Source: Kondoa subrosea (taxonomy: Eukaryota). From it: DNA of 64,000 nucleotides. Below are positions 40,782-64,000 of this stretch, piece by piece; position 1 is the stretch's first letter; each line of letters opens with the position of its first letter. The stretch covers positions 310,001 through 374,000 of the forward strand of contig BCIN01000009.1 in the NCBI GenBank assembly GCA_039545335.1. Reading direction: 5' to 3'. The notes below the pieces were generated by a model. It had not been told where the DNA came from and ran no database searches. It saw only the letters and a list, made by a program, of their open reading frames with translations. A program made the translations under genes and the position numbers.

Positions 40782-43254
40782 ATGCCTACCTGTCCGCATC
40801 ATGAAACTCCGGAAGATCCAAGACCACTATTCTACGATGGGTCGGTCGTAGCTTCAACGTCAAAATGCAGCTGATCATCTGCTGCAGAGAGCTTGATCTC
40901 AAAGCTCATCAAGTCGGCTTCATCGTGACTGGAATCTTCTGCATCATAGCTTGCTCTGCAAATGGATGGTTGATCTCGAAGCATCTAGCATTGTCAGCAT
41001 TTCATCAGTCTGACTGAAACCAACTGAGTATATTCACAGCTATACCAACAAAAGGCAACAGAGGCAGATTGTCAGGATCTTATTCATGATACCTTGTTAC
41101 AGTATCGTTTCATGGCTGTCGTACTACTTCTGGCAACAGGTATATGACTCGTTCCTTTAGTTAAGCCAAATCTTACTTCCTTTCAGGCCTTATACTTCCA
41201 ACTTGTCCGAGATTGCTACGAAGCCTTCGTTCTCACTAGCTTCTTCTATCTCCTCTTGGCATACCTGGGAGATACGCCGGCTGAACAGAAACAAGCTTTC
41301 AAGAGGATCAAGTTAGAGAAATGGATGTTTCCCCTTGGAAGATGGAGATATAGACCATCTTCTGGCTTACACTTTGTTTGGCTTTGCAAGTGGTTCATTC
41401 TGCAGTATGTGGTTCTCCGACGTGAGTGACGACAATCGGCCGAAAACCTTCAGACTGATCAAAGGATGCAGCTTTGTGCACTCTGGCCGCATGCATCTCC
41501 AATGCTCTGGGCTATTACTGTGCTCTGAGTTGGTCTCCGCTCTTTGTACATGTAAGCTTTACCAGATACAGCCGATGTAGCTTTTGACTTGAAAGCGCAA
41601 CAGGTCTGGACTACGGGCATCATCACTATATCAGTCACATTTGCTCTATATATCGTTCTACAGTTCACTGTTGTCCTTAAATCAGAATTAGAAGAGTTCA
41701 AACCAATGCTAAAGTTCTTTGTTGTCAAAGGACTGGTCTTTCTGATATTGTAAGCATATCCCGCCGAATTGAATACAACGTTTCTGATCGCCCGACAGCT
41801 GGCAATACGTTTTGTTGGCTGTCCTGATGTACTTCAACGTGATTCGAGAGACAAAGTATTGGTCTCAGGAAGAAGTCGGCGTAGGCTATGAAGCTCTCTT
41901 GATTACCTTTGAAATGGTCATTTTCGCCTTTCTACATATCAAAGCCTTCTCTTACCTACCATACCGTCCACCTGGATTCGATGCGGATGCAAGAAAAGCT
42001 CTACAAACGAATAGATGGAAGGCTTTTTGTAATGTGATTGACTACCGTGATGTTGGCCGGGAACTAGGAGAAGGAACCATCTACATGGGACAAAAGGTCA
42101 AGGGAAAGGCAGAAGTAGATCGAAGAGCTGATATGGAAGCTATCTTTGAGAAAGTCAGGGAAGAGTCAGCTGAAGTGATTTGCGAAAAGAAGGGAAAAAA
42201 GAATAGACAACAAGAGATGAGTGAGATTGAGAAAGAACTGCAAAGAGTCAAAGCCATGGGAACAGAAGAGCAGCCTAGACCATCATTCGCTGCAAGTGGA
42301 CAGGACTTATTACCCGAGTCACCTCGAACATCAAGAGACCTGGATTCTGATCGCATGCTGCAAGAATCGGATGACATTCGCTATCCATCGGAACTTGCTT
42401 ACGACTCTCTATATTCTGATCCTTTTGAATGCTACGATCGCATAGCACCAATTCGGACGACCAGTTCTGCTCCCAAAACACAGTCAAATGGTAAGTATAC
42501 AGCGCTTGGTCTACAAGAGGACTTGGATGAGAAAGCTCCTGTCCATTCCGCAACAGATGACAGGCAGCCTCACAGCAAGAAAGAAGGTTTAGGCTACGAG
42601 AATCGCAGACCCAAGAAGTCAGATCGCTCATGGTGGCCAAGCTTACGGAACAAGAAAGAGCCTGTTCCTATTCCAAATGTCCAAGATGCTCAACTCCGCG
42701 CATCTGATCTATGGCTTGGAGGTGTTCCATCAGTACAACCCGCTCAAGCAATATCGACTCGTCCAGCCGAAAGAAAAGCCCTGCCAGTTCAGCAACGCTA
42801 CTCTTCAGCTCTTTCTGAACCTCAATCTCAAGCTCGACAACTAGTCATGCCATCTCCATTATCACCTTCTCGATATCCTTCCATGCCCTCTGCCAATATA
42901 CAACCATCTCGTTCTTCTTTTGCGCCTTCAAACCGATCGACTTCCTACGTGCAGTCGCGCAGGCTGTCGCTCGACGGTCGATATCCTCTTCCACAAGCAC
43001 CTCGCCCTACTCGGCAGGTCACAGCGCCAGAGATGCAATTTTCTCGTTCACATAGGCCGACTAGCTATCCCGCCGTTTCGTTTGCATCAAGTTCTCGTTC
43101 GATTAAGATTGTTCCTTCTCGACCTCATCAAACAAGAATGGTGAGTACGTCAGCGAATGACAAGGGTCTAACGGAGTTTGGCCAATGGTCAGACAGACCT
43201 CGAATAGGAGCTAAGGGATCTCCTAATTCGCCGTTCCTTTTCGAAGAATGCTAG
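40782..43254 (+). CDS. OSTalpha/TMEM184 family organic solute transporter
   Basis: QRQIVRILFMIP.Y, RDCYEAFV, KFFVVK, LITFEMVIFAFLH.KAFSY. Confidence 0.9.
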
Positions 43255-43319
43255 TAATATAGAGTGTTGTTTGTACATTGTGATTTTGTGCATAGAGGTT
43301 TTCGTTAGATACATGGTTT

Positions 43320-44843
43320 TTACCAGGATCTTACTTCCACATCCAAACACTTGTGCAGACCAGCTGCTTCCTCTTCTACTTTCCTCAACTCTGCTTGCTT
43401 AAAGTATGGTAGAACAGCTACTTTCAATGTATTCTCAAAGAGTCGGTCGATGACTCCTGATAATCGATCGCCGGTTTGAGCAAAGTCGGGACAAGCGTTG
43501 ATCTCGAGAAGATAAGGTTGCAGAGCATCGCTGACAAGATCGAGTCAGTCAGGTAGGTCAATGAATCCCGGAGCAGAACTGACTCGAGCAAGAAATCGAC
43601 ACCATAAAGCTCAAAAGCATTGGGTAAGGGCTACGTAGTAGATCAGTTTGTAGATTCCTCTGCTATAGGTGAATTCGCACCTGGAATTGACTACCTGATC
43701 CCAGAGCAGCTTTCCAAGCCTCTGCTAAGAGATCACTGATTTGCGCAAACACCCTGTCCACATCTTCGTTCTCCAATTCTTTCTCTCCAGCTGCGAGCTT
43801 TGCCCGGCAGCCAACAAGATCATCGAAGAGATGAACATTCGGATTGTCTTGTGAAGGCAGATCCTGTAAGCAGGTATTCGTCAGATGACTTGCGAGGTCG
43901 TAGAGGTCGGTCCCTTGGTCTACAGCTTCTTGTGGAGGGAATTGGTAAGCCGAATCAGCGAATAAGGCCAGGATATCTTGCGAGACATATAACCTAGTCT
44001 TCAGAGTCAAAGTGGTCAATCGAGCAATTTCCATCAGAACACACCTTAGTGCACCGACAGCGAGTACATATACTCTCAAATGGAACTTGCGAAAGGTGTT
44101 TGAGTCTTTTGGCCTGACCAACAGTGGATTCGATATATACGCCTGCCGATGTGTCAGAAATCGATATGTATGATAGGGCGAGCTCACCTGTACTACCCAG
44201 TATCTCATTTGCCCTAGTGACATCTCTTTACCTTCTTCGCTGTCGGACTCTTCTTCGCTATCATCTTCATGCCCTTCCAGTATCCGCATCAGATCTTCTT
44301 GAGACTGGAACAGCTGTATCCCTTGGCCGCGATCAGCCATTGCTGGTTTCAGTATCCACCATTTCTTCGACTCAGGATCATCGAAAGCTTCCTTCAGCTC
44401 GTAGAGATCATCGAGCAGTAAGTCCTCCAATTCATCGGCGAAAGATATTTGGAAAGTGTATGTTTCTGGTACACCTGCTTTGAGCGATGATTCGGGATGC
44501 TTTGCGAGGTATTGTGCCACTGTGGTAGGGAAATGATGCTTCCTTATCAAAGCCTGCATTACATTTTTTGTCAAGATACCACCGACTGGCTCTTGGGATG
44601 TCAAGTCACCTTTCGTATCACGTATGCGTTCAACAGACAGCGGTCTTCCATTCCCCAATCCCAGACCAGTGCATCATAATCAGAAAATTGAAGAACAGCA
44701 CCAGACGAGGGAAATGAGTCCAGGGAAGTGACTAGGCTCCAGTCTGCAAGGACTTTAGCTGCTGCTTGTCGAATGGCATCTCTGGTATAGTCTGCGCCGG
44801 CTGGGTAGTCGACCAGAATTGTGCCTTGAGAGGAATTGGCCAT
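43320..44843 (-). CDS. Tubulin-tyrosine ligase family ATP-grasp protein (Pby1-like C-terminal domain)
   Basis: WILKPAMADRGQGI, RKFHLRVYVL, HLTNTCLQ, FELYGVDFL, LLEINACPDF. Confidence 0.88.
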
Positions 44844-45270
44844 TGAATGAAGAAAGCGAAAAAACAAGAGCGTTGTTCATTGGGCCCAAGCTGTTCTGGA
44901 TGTCCTGGACCACTGCGTGTGCTGAACTGCGGAATATCAACGCGAAGCCTTTGGTCATGCTTCTTTTGCTCGAATCTAAATCATCTGATAGGCATCTGCC
45001 AGCTAGGAAGTACTTTGGCGTCTTGTATAAGTGTTCTGCTTCTATGTACATGTAGGTATCCTGTTGCATGCTGCTGAAGCCTCCTACAAGCCTTTGCATG
45101 CGTCTTCAGCGCGAATTGCAATATGAACTACTGATTCCTCGAAAAGCCATCCTTGATTCTCAAGCGTGCCTTCAAGTACACAAGCCTCACATAGAGCAAG
45201 CCTGCTATCATGATTCTTCACAAATGGATCAAGATGTCTTCTCTTGCTCTCATTCACATATCAGATCAGA

Positions 45271-46853
45271 ATGGTTTACACAATTGCCATTGCTTGCCTT
45301 GTCGCCGCTCGTGCTCTAGCCTTGCCCATCTCTCTACCAGCTCCTCATGCTTTTGATGATGTTCAACCTCTTCTATTTGGAGCAGGAGGAGCAGTCATGA
45401 TATCTAGTACAGAAGATCTGCAAACTCCCGCTTTCACATCGCAAGAAGCTCAATCCACAACGAGTTCTGGACAATTACCCACATCCACATCGACCGCGGA
45501 ATTGATCTTGCCAACAATCACATCGATTGCAGAATCGCTGCAGCCTATCACCTCATCCAGTGCCGATGCTCTATCTATCTTGGTTCTGCCAGCGCCGAGC
45601 ACCGAGACCACTACTTCCTTCGCCAGCGCAACACCTACTCAGCCTTTGAGCACCTCAACCTCGTCAGTACAGCCATCAGTAGCTTCGTCATCCGGATCAT
45701 CAAGCTCCTGGGCTCTCAATCCAGCTTTCACAGACATTCAAGATGGTTTCGGCGTTACGAAACTCACTTGGGGCTCCACTCTCGCTAGCGTTATTCCAGC
45801 TGTTCCTTCGACCGCATGGGCCACCGCGTCAGCTTCACCATCTATGATAGCGCCTGATTCTTCACCTGTTCCTGCACCTGCAGCACCAACTGGCAATGTC
45901 TTGCAAGTCAAATATCCAAAAGGAAGCATCAATCCCGATCCATCACATACTGGAGGAGTTGGTTTCTATGCTACACCAGCCGATATCACTCAAGCCAACA
46001 ACATTTCTCTGTCGTACAGCATCTTCTTTCCTGCTGATTTCGAGTTCAATAAGGGCGGGAAATTACCAGGCATGGATGGTGGTCATGGAGGTTGCTCAGG
46101 CGGCAAGAATGCCGACGACTGTTTCTCTACAAGGTTGATGTGGAGACAAGATGGATTGGGAGAGCTTTACTTGTATGGTAAGCCTGCTCTGCACGATTCG
46201 CTCGAACTAAAGCTGATTATTCCTTTCTTTCTGCAACAGCTCCTCACAAACAACCTCAATCTTTATGCAGTCTCGGACCTAAAACTTATTGCGACACTGC
46301 TTATGGTGCTTCTATCGGTCGAGGTGCTTGGACATGGGCTAGAGGCAATTGGACTCACGTTCGAACGGATGTTTGGCTCAACACACCTGGTCTACCTGAT
46401 GGAGGTTTCAACATCTGGGTCAACAATGAGCTGGTCTTACATTCCGATACTGTTCTCTATCGAAATGCTGTCGACGCTTCATCAACTTTCACATCCGCTT
46501 CGTCTACTCCAAAAGTCAAGTTAACTCAAATTCTGCCAACTGTTGTCCCGACTGCCAGCAATCTCATCGGCGATGTCCTAGGCGGCGGTCTAGTCCTAGA
46601 TCGTCTCTTACTTGCTGGATCTACTTCTACTATAACCTCGGATTCGGATTCAGATTCAGATGTTCAAGATCTCTCAACTGAACCAGTGGATGAAGATCTG
46701 AGTAACTCAGCTCAAGTTCTAGCTAGCAAGAAGCCAATCGGCTTCAAATCGATCATGTTTCAAACTTTCTTTGGCGGACATGAAAGTCAATGGGCATCTC
46801 CAAAGGATCAGTACAGTTACTTTGCAGATGTCAAGCTGGCAGTGAACAGCTAA
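45271..46853 (+). CDS. Secreted polysaccharide lyase family 14 protein
   Basis: Signal peptide, S/T-rich linker, YPKGSINP, FNKGGKLPG, CFSTRLMWR, FQTFFGG..WASP. Confidence 0.88.
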
Positions 46854-51690: not shown

Positions 51691-55656
<3,966 letters not shown>

Positions 55657-55726: not shown

Positions 55727-55738
55727 AAAAAAAAAAAA
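55727..55738 (-). terminator. Pol III terminator (T12) downstream of the tRNA
   Basis: Twelve A on the plus strand, separated by 2 nt from the discriminator base. Confidence 0.8.
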
Positions 55739-55740
55739 CT

Positions 55741-55869
55741 AGATCTCAGCGATGGTCGAAATCGCGATCTTCAGCTCTCTCAGGCCGGAAACTGACTGCT
55801 ATGCAACTCAACTGATGTCACACAAGGCGCGGACATCCACGTACCGCCGTACCACTTGGCCATGAGACC
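55741..55869 (-). tRNA. tRNA-Arg(CCG) interrupted by a 49-nt GT-AG intron (55844-55796) and an 8-nt 37/38 intron (55784-55777)
   Basis: Spliced sequence: GGTCTCA TG GCCAAGTGGTACGGC G TCAGT TTCCGGA GCTGA AGATC GCGAT TTCGACC ATCGC TGAGATC T. All four stems pair; A-box TGGCCAAGTGG. Confidence 0.85.
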
Positions 55870-56347
55870 GATTTGCCACAGAAACGTCTGGCGAGACGTC
55901 ATGTCATATATAAAACTTGTAGCCAAATTTTGTAAGACAAATTAACAGCTTGAGCTCTGGGCGCCAGACTGGGTGCGCCAAAAGGGCGCGGTGATGGGCG
56001 CGGAGCGAGGGTTACTCTTGTATAGTAACAGTCGGCTGCAGCTGACTGTGAAGCTTATTGAGAACCTCATATCATCATTTCATCGTTGTGCAATGCGGAT
56101 TGGACTGTGAGAGCTGCAGTAGCTAGCCTAATGCAGTGAATCAGTAACCGTTATTTCAGCGCGCATGACCTAATTTGGTTGCACCGCGGTCAGTGCGAGA
56201 TTTTTGGCGACCAATGTTTTGAAACTCAAGAGCCATTCAGCGACTCCGGAATTGTGTGGACACATACAGTCTGGATACCCTTTGATAAGGCTGCTATTGC
56301 AGACTCTGTGCTCTGCCGCATTCTTAATTCTTCGGGCGAAATCCACA

Positions 56348-61195: not shown

Positions 61196-64000
61196 ATGAA
61201 TCAAAGCAATATAGCAGGCAGTAATCAGTACCCTGGCAATGCTTACAATTATGGCTACGATGCAACGAATCAGCCTAGCTCGATGCCCTTCACTTCGCAA
61301 GCCATGGCAGGACCGTCTTATCGCACTGCAAGTCCATTTCAGCCGAATCATCAGAACCCTACCCAGGCAGGATCGCCCTACGGATACCACACAACGTCTA
61401 GACCAGCCTCTGCTATGAGTAATCCTGCTTATACTGCTCAGCAAGGCTATCCTAGTCAAAGTCCTGTGAATCAGCAAGATATGCAACAGCAGGTGTTTCA
61501 ACAGCAGTATCCCGTTCAATCAGCATATTCCGGTCAACAGCAACAAAGTTGGCAGCAAGACAATGCTCGTAGTCATCCTCGGCAAACTTCTGGCAGCTTT
61601 CCTGCTTCTATGGCTGCTTCCCCAGCTCTGGCCAATAGCCCTTATAATCCATCTACTGGTATACCAGCTCGCCCGCCTAGTGTGGCGAGATCAGAGAAGT
61701 CTTATTCCTCGCCTGCTTTACCTCATTCTGCTTTACCTCCAAGAGTTCAGCAACAGCAAATGAACGGTTACGCTCCTCAACAAGCCTACACTCAGCCGAA
61801 TTATCAAATGCAACAACAGCAACAGCTTAGGCAGTATCAAATGCAGCAACAGAGTGTCTACCAGAACCAGCAAATGATGCCTCCTCAGGCTCAACCAGTT
61901 TACCATAATCAAAATCAACAGAGTCCACCGAAGAGACAAGCTAGCCTTCCTCAAAGTGCACCGAACAATGCGGCTGCTCAACCTCGACTGCCTGACGAAC
62001 AAGTCGTTCAAGCATTACAACACTTCCTTCAGCAGGCAAATATTCAAATGACTTCTTTGCCTGCTGTCGAAGGCCATCAAGTCGATATTGTGCTGCTATA
62101 CAAGCTTGTTCAATTCCATGGAGGAGGACAGATGGTCTCCAACAAGCATCTTTGGGACACGGTAATCAATCAGATGCGAATTTTTCCCGACAGCGGACCC
62201 AACTCGCAGGAGCGTCTGAATGCCGTTGTACAAGTGTGTTGCATGTGACAGTCGCCTTTAAGATTACTGACTGCTACTAGATCTACCGAACCTATCTGCT
62301 TCAATTCGAGCACTACGTTCGGCAGCGTCTGATGAACCAAGCTTCAATTGGGCAAGGCGGACAACAGCCACAAATGCAACAGCAGCAGCCGCAACAAGTC
62401 AGGCCTCAGATTCAGCAGAATACACCAAACAATCCAGCTTACACTCAACCACCTCCTCCTGCTTTAGCTCAAGCTGCAACACCCATTGCTCCGCCTATAC
62501 AATCGCCTCATGTTCGTGTACCTTCACAAACTCAGCAGCAGCAGCAACAACAACAACAAAGACCTGCCTCTGCTACCAATCAAGTTCTCACCGAACCTTC
62601 AGCGACTTCACAGATGCCTGAACCTACTATGGCCGTACCTTTGATGCCAGCTCAACGACAAGTTTCACCTCCTGCTCCTTCTCCTGTCAGGTCACCTCTT
62701 CGAACGAACGGTGTAGCATCACCAGCTAAAGAAGAACCAGTGGAAGAGAAATTTGAAGAAGAAGATGAGGAAGAGGACGATAGTGTAGCTACAAACTATA
62801 TAAATGGTTTGGTCGCTTCTGTAAGTCAAGATTTGCCTTCGCCTAAAAGAGAAGAACCAGTAGCATCTACTTCGAAACTGAAGCCGGAAGAAGAGGGTGT
62901 AAAGCGGCGGAAGCAAAAGATTATATATCAACCGTTGAAGAGGAAGATTGACACCTACGGTGGATTGGCACCAACGGAGATTGATGAAGCAGTGCGATAT
63001 GTGGAATCGAAAAAGCGGAAACGTACAAAGAATGATATTGGTGAGTTGCGCCTATACAAATGAAGCTCAAGCTCATGGGTAAATTAGGGACTCTCGATGT
63101 CAACGCTACTATTCTATCGCTCCAATCCGGTTTACCGACTGAAGTCACTTATGCTCTCAATTCCTTGTCTATCGTTTCAGAAGCCTGCAGAACGGCTGAA
63201 TCACCAAATGGCTGCAAGTTCCCTCTAGCTGAATGTGGAGAGCTTCTCGACACACTGTTTAATCTGGTAGAAGAGGCAGCTTTTCCCGCTACAATTCAAG
63301 AAGTACCATCTGCGAATCAATCCAAGTCAAGTACGGCAGCGCAACCTTCATCTTACCGGGAACTCTACCTATTTGCTATGGCTGACAACAAGCTTCGTCA
63401 ACGCAATAGAAGACAACAAGTTGCAGCTCTTCCTCGCTCGCACATTCTTCTAAATATCCTTTGCACGCTTCGAAATTTCGCGGCATCTCTGGACAACTCG
63501 GGTACCATCTATGCTCACCCTCGTTTTATTGGCCTCCTGCTACGACTTATCAGCTCTTCGGCCCCTCTTTCACCTTCAACGGATCTAGATTGGTCCGATA
63601 TCCTCACAATTAAGAAAGATGTGCTGGTCATGCTAGCTGATGTTGGTGCAGAGCAAGACCTAGGTTGCAATTTTACCCCAGCCCAAGTGAGCGACCTTTG
63701 GCAGTTCCTCCACTTCTTTCTGGGGGAGCATTCAGCATACGATGATCCGCTACAAACCAATTCCAGCAATTCTATGGCTATCACTATTGGACATATTGGC
63801 ATATACGCAGATCTGGCACTGTCCATCCTCATCAAACTCGGTGCAGCCGATCAGAATCGAACAGTTTTGGCAGCTACTTTACCTCGAGCGGAAATTCTGG
63901 TCGATATTTACGACACACTTTTACGACTTTTACCCAGCACAGCCGATGATCTCGCGATGCTCCAAACACCTTATGATAATTTAGGCGTTACTTTGGAAAG
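61196..64000 (+). CDS. SWI1: SWI/SNF subunit Swi1/Sol1-like ARID protein, 3' partial
   Basis: Q/P-rich N-terminus, ARID (VDIVLLYKLVQFHGG..VS..HLW), YQPLKRKIDTYGG, LSLQSGLPTEVTYALN. Confidence 0.82.

Follow-up and report, generated by a model that had tools for sequence, protein, structure and literature searches.

According to the available text of PMC12530127, the intron types of eukaryotes are unrelated to one another, spliceosomal introns being found in RNA polymerase II transcripts and tRNA introns being cut by a protein endonuclease. Spliceosomal introns have also been described in genes for non-coding RNAs; fungal U6 genes carry up to four introns, which have canonical signals and are otherwise unconserved, and introns also occur in U1, U2, U5 and rRNA genes, with the U1, U2 and U5 genes of Rhodotorula hasegawae all carrying spliceosomal introns (PMC5855946, partial text). 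The same partial text describes the determinants of intron insertion into non-coding RNAs as unclear and calls for experimental validation (PMC5855946), while U3 and U6 are named in the available part of PMC5832005 as the sole small structured RNAs in which introns are known to be frequent. In the literature searched (most subscription journals lay outside the search), no paper was found on a spliceosomal intron in a tRNA gene or on a pre-tRNA as a substrate of the spliceosome, in agreement with an earlier note on this DNA, made from the sequence, which knew of no described case.

A tRNA-Arg(CCG) gene of 129 nt, running from tRNA position 1 to discriminator 73 and interrupted at two places, was identified by sequence reading and ARAGORN at positions 55741-55869 on the minus strand of the analysed DNA (64,000 nucleotides in total, referred to below as the window). 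Exon 1 (55845-55869; tRNA positions 1-26, assigned from the sequence and ARAGORN) is 25 nt long, position 17 being absent on reading of the sequence, and comprises a 7-nt acceptor 5' strand, U8, a D-arm with A14, G18, G19 and A21, and a final G26. It is followed by an insert of 49 nt (55796-55844), of spliceosomal type by its sequence and motif score, which lies between tRNA positions 26 and 27. The earlier note had read G26, these 49 nt and then TCAGT on the minus strand, and the sequence reads exactly in this way. The parts downstream were placed with ARAGORN. Exon 2a (55785-55795; positions 27-37) consists of TCAGT, the 5' strand of the anticodon stem, and the loop sequence TTCCGG with the anticodon CCG, and is separated from exon 2b by a canonical tRNA intron of 8 nt, CCTGAGAG (55777-55784), between positions 37 and 38. 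Exon 2b (55741-55776; positions 38-73) contains A38, the anticodon stem 3' strand GCTGA, a 5-nt variable loop (AGATC), the T-arm GCGAT/TTCGACC/ATCGC, the acceptor 3' strand and a discriminator T.

When both inserts were removed, a 72-nt tRNA-Arg(CCG) was returned at default ARAGORN settings, with an acceptor stem of 7 bp (one G-U pair included) and a T-stem of 5 bp; the conserved bases U8, A14, G18, G19, A21, U33, G37, T54, T55, C56 and A58 are all present. Exon 1 contains an A-box-like sequence, TGGCCAAGTGG, which fits the A-box consensus at 11 of 11 positions, whereas the B box agrees with its own consensus at only 7 of 11 and retains the TTCGA core. G53-C61 is almost invariant in tRNAs and forms part of the B box. 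The T-stem of this gene is unusual in the ARAGORN fold, with U53-A61 where that pair is usual and A52-U62 beside it; both partners of the U53-A61 pair have changed in a compensating way, and this suggests continued selection on the structure.

A run of 12 T (55727-55738, minus strand) begins 3 nt after the discriminator and is a predicted RNA polymerase III terminator, and no run of four T was found within the interrupted gene (55741-55869), the 49-nt insert included. A TATA-like element, TATATAT (55906-55912, minus strand), is located 37-43 nt 5' of tRNA position 1; in certain plants and fungi, an upstream TATA box is important when tRNA genes are transcribed (PMC3978253, partial text). By these features, the gene that surrounds the 49-nt insert is a well-formed tRNA gene of predicted RNA polymerase III type. 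The neighbouring C1-tetrahydrofolate synthase gene has CGG at 2 of its 43 Arg codons, so that a CGG-reading tRNA is needed, and the anticodon predicts that this tRNA would read CGG.

The earlier note stated that excision of the 49 nt at GT...CAG joins the D-arm to the anticodon stem with correct spacing. The cut does join G26 to TCAGT as it described, but for a normal tRNA the 8-nt CCTGAGAG, which had been overlooked, must also be removed. In the tRNA-finder comparison with and without the 49 nt which that note proposed (performed here with ARAGORN), the native sequence gave no tRNA and removal of the 49 nt gave an abnormal one, Arg(CCG) being obtained when both inserts were out. With only the 49 nt removed, ARAGORN offered two odd readings, a Leu(GAG) tRNA with a 6-nt intron at 31/32 and a tRNA having an anticodon loop of 8 nt and an extra arm; both were rejected as less canonical than Arg(CCG) with an intron at 37/38. 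Removal of CCTGAGAG shrinks the anticodon loop from 15 nt to the 7-nt TTCCGGA. In canonical tRNA introns a pyrimidine at position 32 can pair with a purine 3 nt before the 3' cut; U32 could form this pair here with the G at position 6 of the 8-nt intron. Given the 8-nt insert at 37/38, maturation of this tRNA would need two different splicing systems.

A C1-tetrahydrofolate synthase gene was placed at 51802-55653 on the plus strand by spliced protein-to-DNA alignment. Its introns were mapped with three basidiomycete homologues, and an identical set of 18 was obtained with each of the three reference proteins (one proposed 19th intron near the 5' end was left out); the spliced product is 962 residues long and contains no stop. 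With 18 introns in approximately 2.9 kb of coding sequence, or roughly one per 160 nt, the organism is very intron-dense. The tRNA-Arg locus falls in a gap of approximately 500 nt between the coding end of this gene (around 55653) and a plus-strand TPR/kelch gene (after approximately 56140). Elsewhere in the window, at positions 41812-46524 and 61196-63998, Pfam matches showed genes that are ordinary for a fungus. They encode an organic solute transporter-like fragment, a minus-strand member of the tubulin-tyrosine ligase family, a domain of polysaccharide lyase family 14 and a chromatin protein of the ARID/BAF250 kind.

The 18 mapped introns are 46-77 nt long, with 10 of the 18 in the range 46-50 nt, and the insert measures 49 nt. 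Their donors consist of GT, two variable bases (A at position 3 in 7/18, C at position 4 in 3/18), G at position 5 in 14/18 and T at position 6 in 12/18, and their acceptors are CAG (14/18) or TAG (4/18). A YTGAN box was observed in the mapped introns, often 11-13 nt from the 3' end.

On the minus strand the insert starts with GTACGTGG and finishes with GCATAGCAG, preceded by G26 and followed by TCAGT. Its ends can be drawn in two registers which give one and the same product, G/GTACG...CAG/T or /GGTAC...GCA/GT (slashes mark the cuts), and only the first of these is GT-AG. The donor GTACGT (55839-55844), with an exonic G just before it, was compared with the 18 mapped introns; the same hexamer also opens the mRNA intron at 53974. 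By intron comparison the best candidate for a branch box is TTGAG (55807-55811), the A of which is 12 nt from the 3' end of the insert; this is a minority box, chosen in 1 of 15 training introns. A weaker alternative, GTGAC (55817-55821; A 22 nt from the 3' end), was picked up in a relaxed NTGAN scan. The 3' end carries tandem acceptors, TAG then CAG (55796-55801; from the sequence and intron comparison), and the correct tRNA arises only with the distal CAG, as use of the TAG 3 nt upstream would leave 3 extra nucleotides. All four features are on the minus strand. The donor, both branch candidates and a YAG acceptor had been listed in the earlier note together with a likeness to local mRNA introns in length and style, which was borne out with the 18 mapped introns.

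A position-weight motif score (donor, acceptor and best branch box) was built from the 18 introns, with 15 introns used in training the branch box. The insert scored 17.1 bits compared to 12.6-20.7 for the mapped introns, 8/18 of which scored lower and 10/18 higher, and only 14 of the 127,904 49-mers of the window (true introns included) reach the score of the insert. Under a simple set of criteria, which was drawn up after the insert had been viewed, 16 of 127,904 window 49-mers passed versus 25 of 639,520 shuffled ones. The G+C content of the insert (53%) is higher than that of all 18 mapped introns (38-52%). By its sequence the insert is indistinguishable from the local mRNA introns, whether in length, in donor and acceptor or in the branch box and the spacing of that box from the 3' end, and it is probably spliceosomal in kind.

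The insert echoes both of its flanks. At 55838-55853 on the minus strand, GGTACGGC ends exon 1 and is directly followed by GGTACGTG, which spans the donor, the two forming a tandem 8-mer with 6 of 8 bases identical; on the other side, TCAGTT at 55810-55815 is repeated as the start of exon 2 at 55790-55795 (minus strand), 20 nt downstream. These echoes could be a trace of the origin of the insert or a source of alternative pairings. In suboptimal folds, exon GUAC was observed to pair with intron GUAC across the donor.

The native 64-kb window gave no tRNA with default ARAGORN, with or without anticodon-loop introns allowed, and no Rfam match either at gathering score or at E up to 1; the suggestion of the earlier note that standard tRNA scanners could miss such genes held for both programs at default settings. 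ARAGORN was then applied to all 27,831 possible GT...AG deletions (35-90 nt, both strands, whole window) and any tRNA was called in 3, all at the 55741-55869 locus. With the 8-nt intron already removed, 1,148 deletion variants around the insert were also tested, and 159 of them were still called tRNA, ARAGORN being lenient on the D-arm. When the threshold was raised, 42 of the 1,148 were left, the proposed variant among them; the last to survive, which had the top score, retains two extra bases and has a 6-bp anticodon stem, and is a non-canonical tRNA. The ARAGORN score was dropped as an arbiter of boundaries, with 159/1,148 variants accepted and a non-canonical one preferred; a call from a tRNA finder is consequently, when taken alone, weak evidence for exact intron boundaries in the D-arm.

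Due to this leniency, both a strict and a lenient estimate of chance are given. In a null simulation, 20,000 random 49-mers from the window were inserted at 26/27. With canonical boundaries, 5/20,000 were as intron-like as the real insert, and when any ARAGORN-accepted deletion was allowed the figure was 152/20,000 (0.76%). The chance explanation accordingly stands at about 0.03% to 0.8%, the value being set by the strictness of the definition of a proper tRNA.

Other types of insert were also considered. A bulge-helix-bulge consists of two 3-nt bulges that contain the cut sites, with a 4-bp helix between them, and none could be drawn at 26/27: whichever orientation and register was taken, no more than 2 of the 4 pairs of the central helix could form, and the cut sites were never found in paired bulges, either in folds with the acceptor, D and T stems enforced or in suboptimal folds of the insert and flanking sequence. 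Folded freely, the precursor was no more stable than shuffled sequence (z-score 0.04). As a test for introner-like elements, a second copy of the 49-nt insert was looked for, and none was present within the 64-kb window, where the best other match was 11 nt. The catalytic core of self-splicing group I and group II introns takes up a few hundred nucleotides; an intron of either group was rejected, the insert having only 49 nt and the window giving no Rfam match at E up to 1. A small RNA hosted in the insert was also rejected, with no credible box C/D pattern present; a local Rfam search gave a single match to a box C/D family (E = 8.2), which was taken as noise.

The C1-tetrahydrofolate synthase protein was used to place the organism. 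Among the hits it was most similar to two unnamed metagenome proteins (76% identity), followed by those of Microbotryomycetes (72-75%). A quick tree of 34 rows, from this one gene and with the careful search unfinished, placed the window inside a 12-row Pucciniomycotina clade with a support of 100; its 33 reference rows, of which 28 are named species and 5 are close hits without a name, were hand-picked from 120 hits, and 87 hits were omitted. The window and the two metagenome proteins formed a branch of their own outside the rust and Microbotryomycetes groups, and the organism may belong to a poorly sampled class. A metagenome scan with a 19-nt query from exon 1 returned 29 loci, all of them bacterial coding sequence, and 0/29 were tRNA by ARAGORN. 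The U6 gene of Rhodotorula hasegawae reportedly has a spliceosomal intron, as do its other snRNA genes mentioned above. This species is Erythrobasidium hasegawianum in the NCBI taxonomy (Cystobasidiomycetes, Pucciniomycotina), and by analogy the occurrence of snRNA introns in the same subphylum counts for a spliceosomal reading of the insert.

The interpretation that we favour, with a rough probability of 45%, is that this is a live nuclear tRNA-Arg(CCG) gene, from the transcript of which the spliceosome would remove the 49 nt at 26/27 and the tRNA endonuclease would then remove the 8 nt at 37/38. Transcription by RNA polymerase III would depend on the internal A box, the weakened B box and the upstream TATA-like element and would end at the T12 run, giving a precursor that holds two introns of different kinds. 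The spliceosome would excise the 49 nt with G/GUACGU as donor, UUGAG (12 nt from the end) as branch box and CAG as acceptor, and the 8-nt intron would be left to the endonuclease and ligase of tRNA splicing. The 49 nt are located at the hinge of the D-arm and anticodon arm, and since the endonuclease measures its cut from the folded tRNA body, the spliceosomal step would probably come first. The 5' exon of 25 nt, with a short leader, would be uncapped, which counts against spliceosomal maturation, as do the minority form of the branch box and the possible pairing of exon GUAC with intron GUAC across the donor. The likely origin of the insert is a spliceosomal intron that was reverse-spliced into the gene, as proposed for U6 and other snRNA genes; reverse splicing has been suggested as a way in which the spliceosome might move introns to new sites, with the displaced DNA strand of R-loops as a possible target (PMC11146597, partial text).

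A dead or dying copy is possible, though in our view somewhat less likely: a tRNA-Arg(CCG) gene would have received an insertion, either a spliceosomal intron that was reverse-spliced in (or arrived by a similar route) or unrelated intron-like DNA, which is not usefully removed, and an intact gene elsewhere would read CGG. The change from G53-C61 to U53-A61 weakens the B box and would suit such a copy, but decay should leave uncompensated damage, and this sole unusual pair is compensated. Also against a dead copy, nothing needed for function has been lost: all four stems and the conserved bases of the loops are intact, as are the terminator, the splice signals (donor, branch and acceptor) and, after removal of the 8 nt, the anticodon loop. 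With regard to the insert itself, the rival TAG acceptor 3 nt upstream of the CAG and a G+C content above that of every mapped intron favour a dead copy, and the repeats GGTACG and TCAGTT, present in the flanks and inside the insert, might mark a repair or duplication accident. The two chance estimates point in different directions, the lenient 152/20,000 being in favour of a dead copy and the 5/20,000 at canonical boundaries against it. The lack of a precedent for spliceosomal introns in tRNAs in the literature searched also weighs in favour of a dead copy.

It is improbable, in our view, that the 49 nt are instead the intron of an overlapping minus-strand RNA polymerase II transcript, such as a non-coding RNA that starts divergently at the promoter of the gene that follows, with the tRNA-like sequence either matured from that transcript or lying inside it as a relic. 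The locus does sit in the gap of approximately 500 nt beside the start region of the plus-strand TPR/kelch gene, and the spliceosome normally acts on polymerase II transcripts (PMC12530127, partial text); however, the exact fit of the boundaries to tRNA positions 26/27 would be unexplained, and the T12 run right after the discriminator, together with the internal A box, points to RNA polymerase III. That the 49 nt form a non-canonical tRNA intron, cut by the tRNA splicing endonuclease or another protein nuclease and with GT-AG ends that are incidental, is very unlikely: multiple and off-position tRNA introns do exist in Archaea, the red alga Cyanidioschyzon merolae and algal nucleomorphs (PMC3978253, partial text) and this gene already has an endonuclease-type intron at 37/38, but neither a strict nor a relaxed bulge-helix-bulge was found at either register, the match to local mRNA introns would be left unexplained and, in the same partial text, the eukaryal enzyme is tied to 37/38 via recognition of the mature domain and eukaryotic off-position introns are reported only from algae and nucleomorphs.

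If the insert is indeed removed from a live tRNA by the spliceosome, a spliceosomal intron would be known from a tRNA for the first time and would join the known mRNA-type introns of small non-coding RNA genes. A single precursor with both intron types would break the division drawn in the available text of PMC12530127. [quoted passage not shown] Standard finders would also be under-counting tRNA genes in intron-rich fungi; a gene of this type is invisible to default ARAGORN and Rfam, and a CGG decoder that seems to be absent from a fungal genome could therefore have escaped annotation.

Compared to known systems, the locus resembles the snRNA genes with introns (U6 of S. pombe; U6, U1, U2 and U5 of E. 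hasegawianum), which like tRNA-Arg are small structured non-coding RNA genes with short canonical introns, and U6 is an RNA polymerase III transcript, as the tRNA would be. Intron gain by reverse splicing is usually explained by the position of the snRNAs within the catalytic centre of the spliceosome or close to it, a position which the tRNA does not have, and the tRNA, unlike an snRNA, has a dedicated splicing pathway, which the tRNA-Arg gene appears to use at 37/38 too. The rRNA genes depend on RNA polymerase I for transcription, and fungal U3 is a polymerase II transcript. Spliceosomal introns in rRNA genes (PMC5855946, partial text, citing Bhattacharya et al. 2000) are also mRNA-type introns in a non-coding RNA gene, and differ from the present case in RNA class and polymerase. 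The introns of fungal U3 snoRNA are likewise spliceosomal, occur in a small structured RNA and are widespread in Basidiomycota; unlike the tRNA-Arg insert, they are clustered in one stem-loop and common to large groups of species (PMC5832005, partial text). The tRNAs of Archaea, C. merolae and nucleomorphs are also interrupted outside 37/38, including in the D-arm and anticodon arm, sometimes by several introns per gene, and are missed by standard finders (PMC3978253, partial text). Those introns are described there as having a strict or relaxed bulge-helix-bulge and as being cut by the endonuclease, whereas the tRNA-Arg insert lacks the motif and carries spliceosomal signals in its place.
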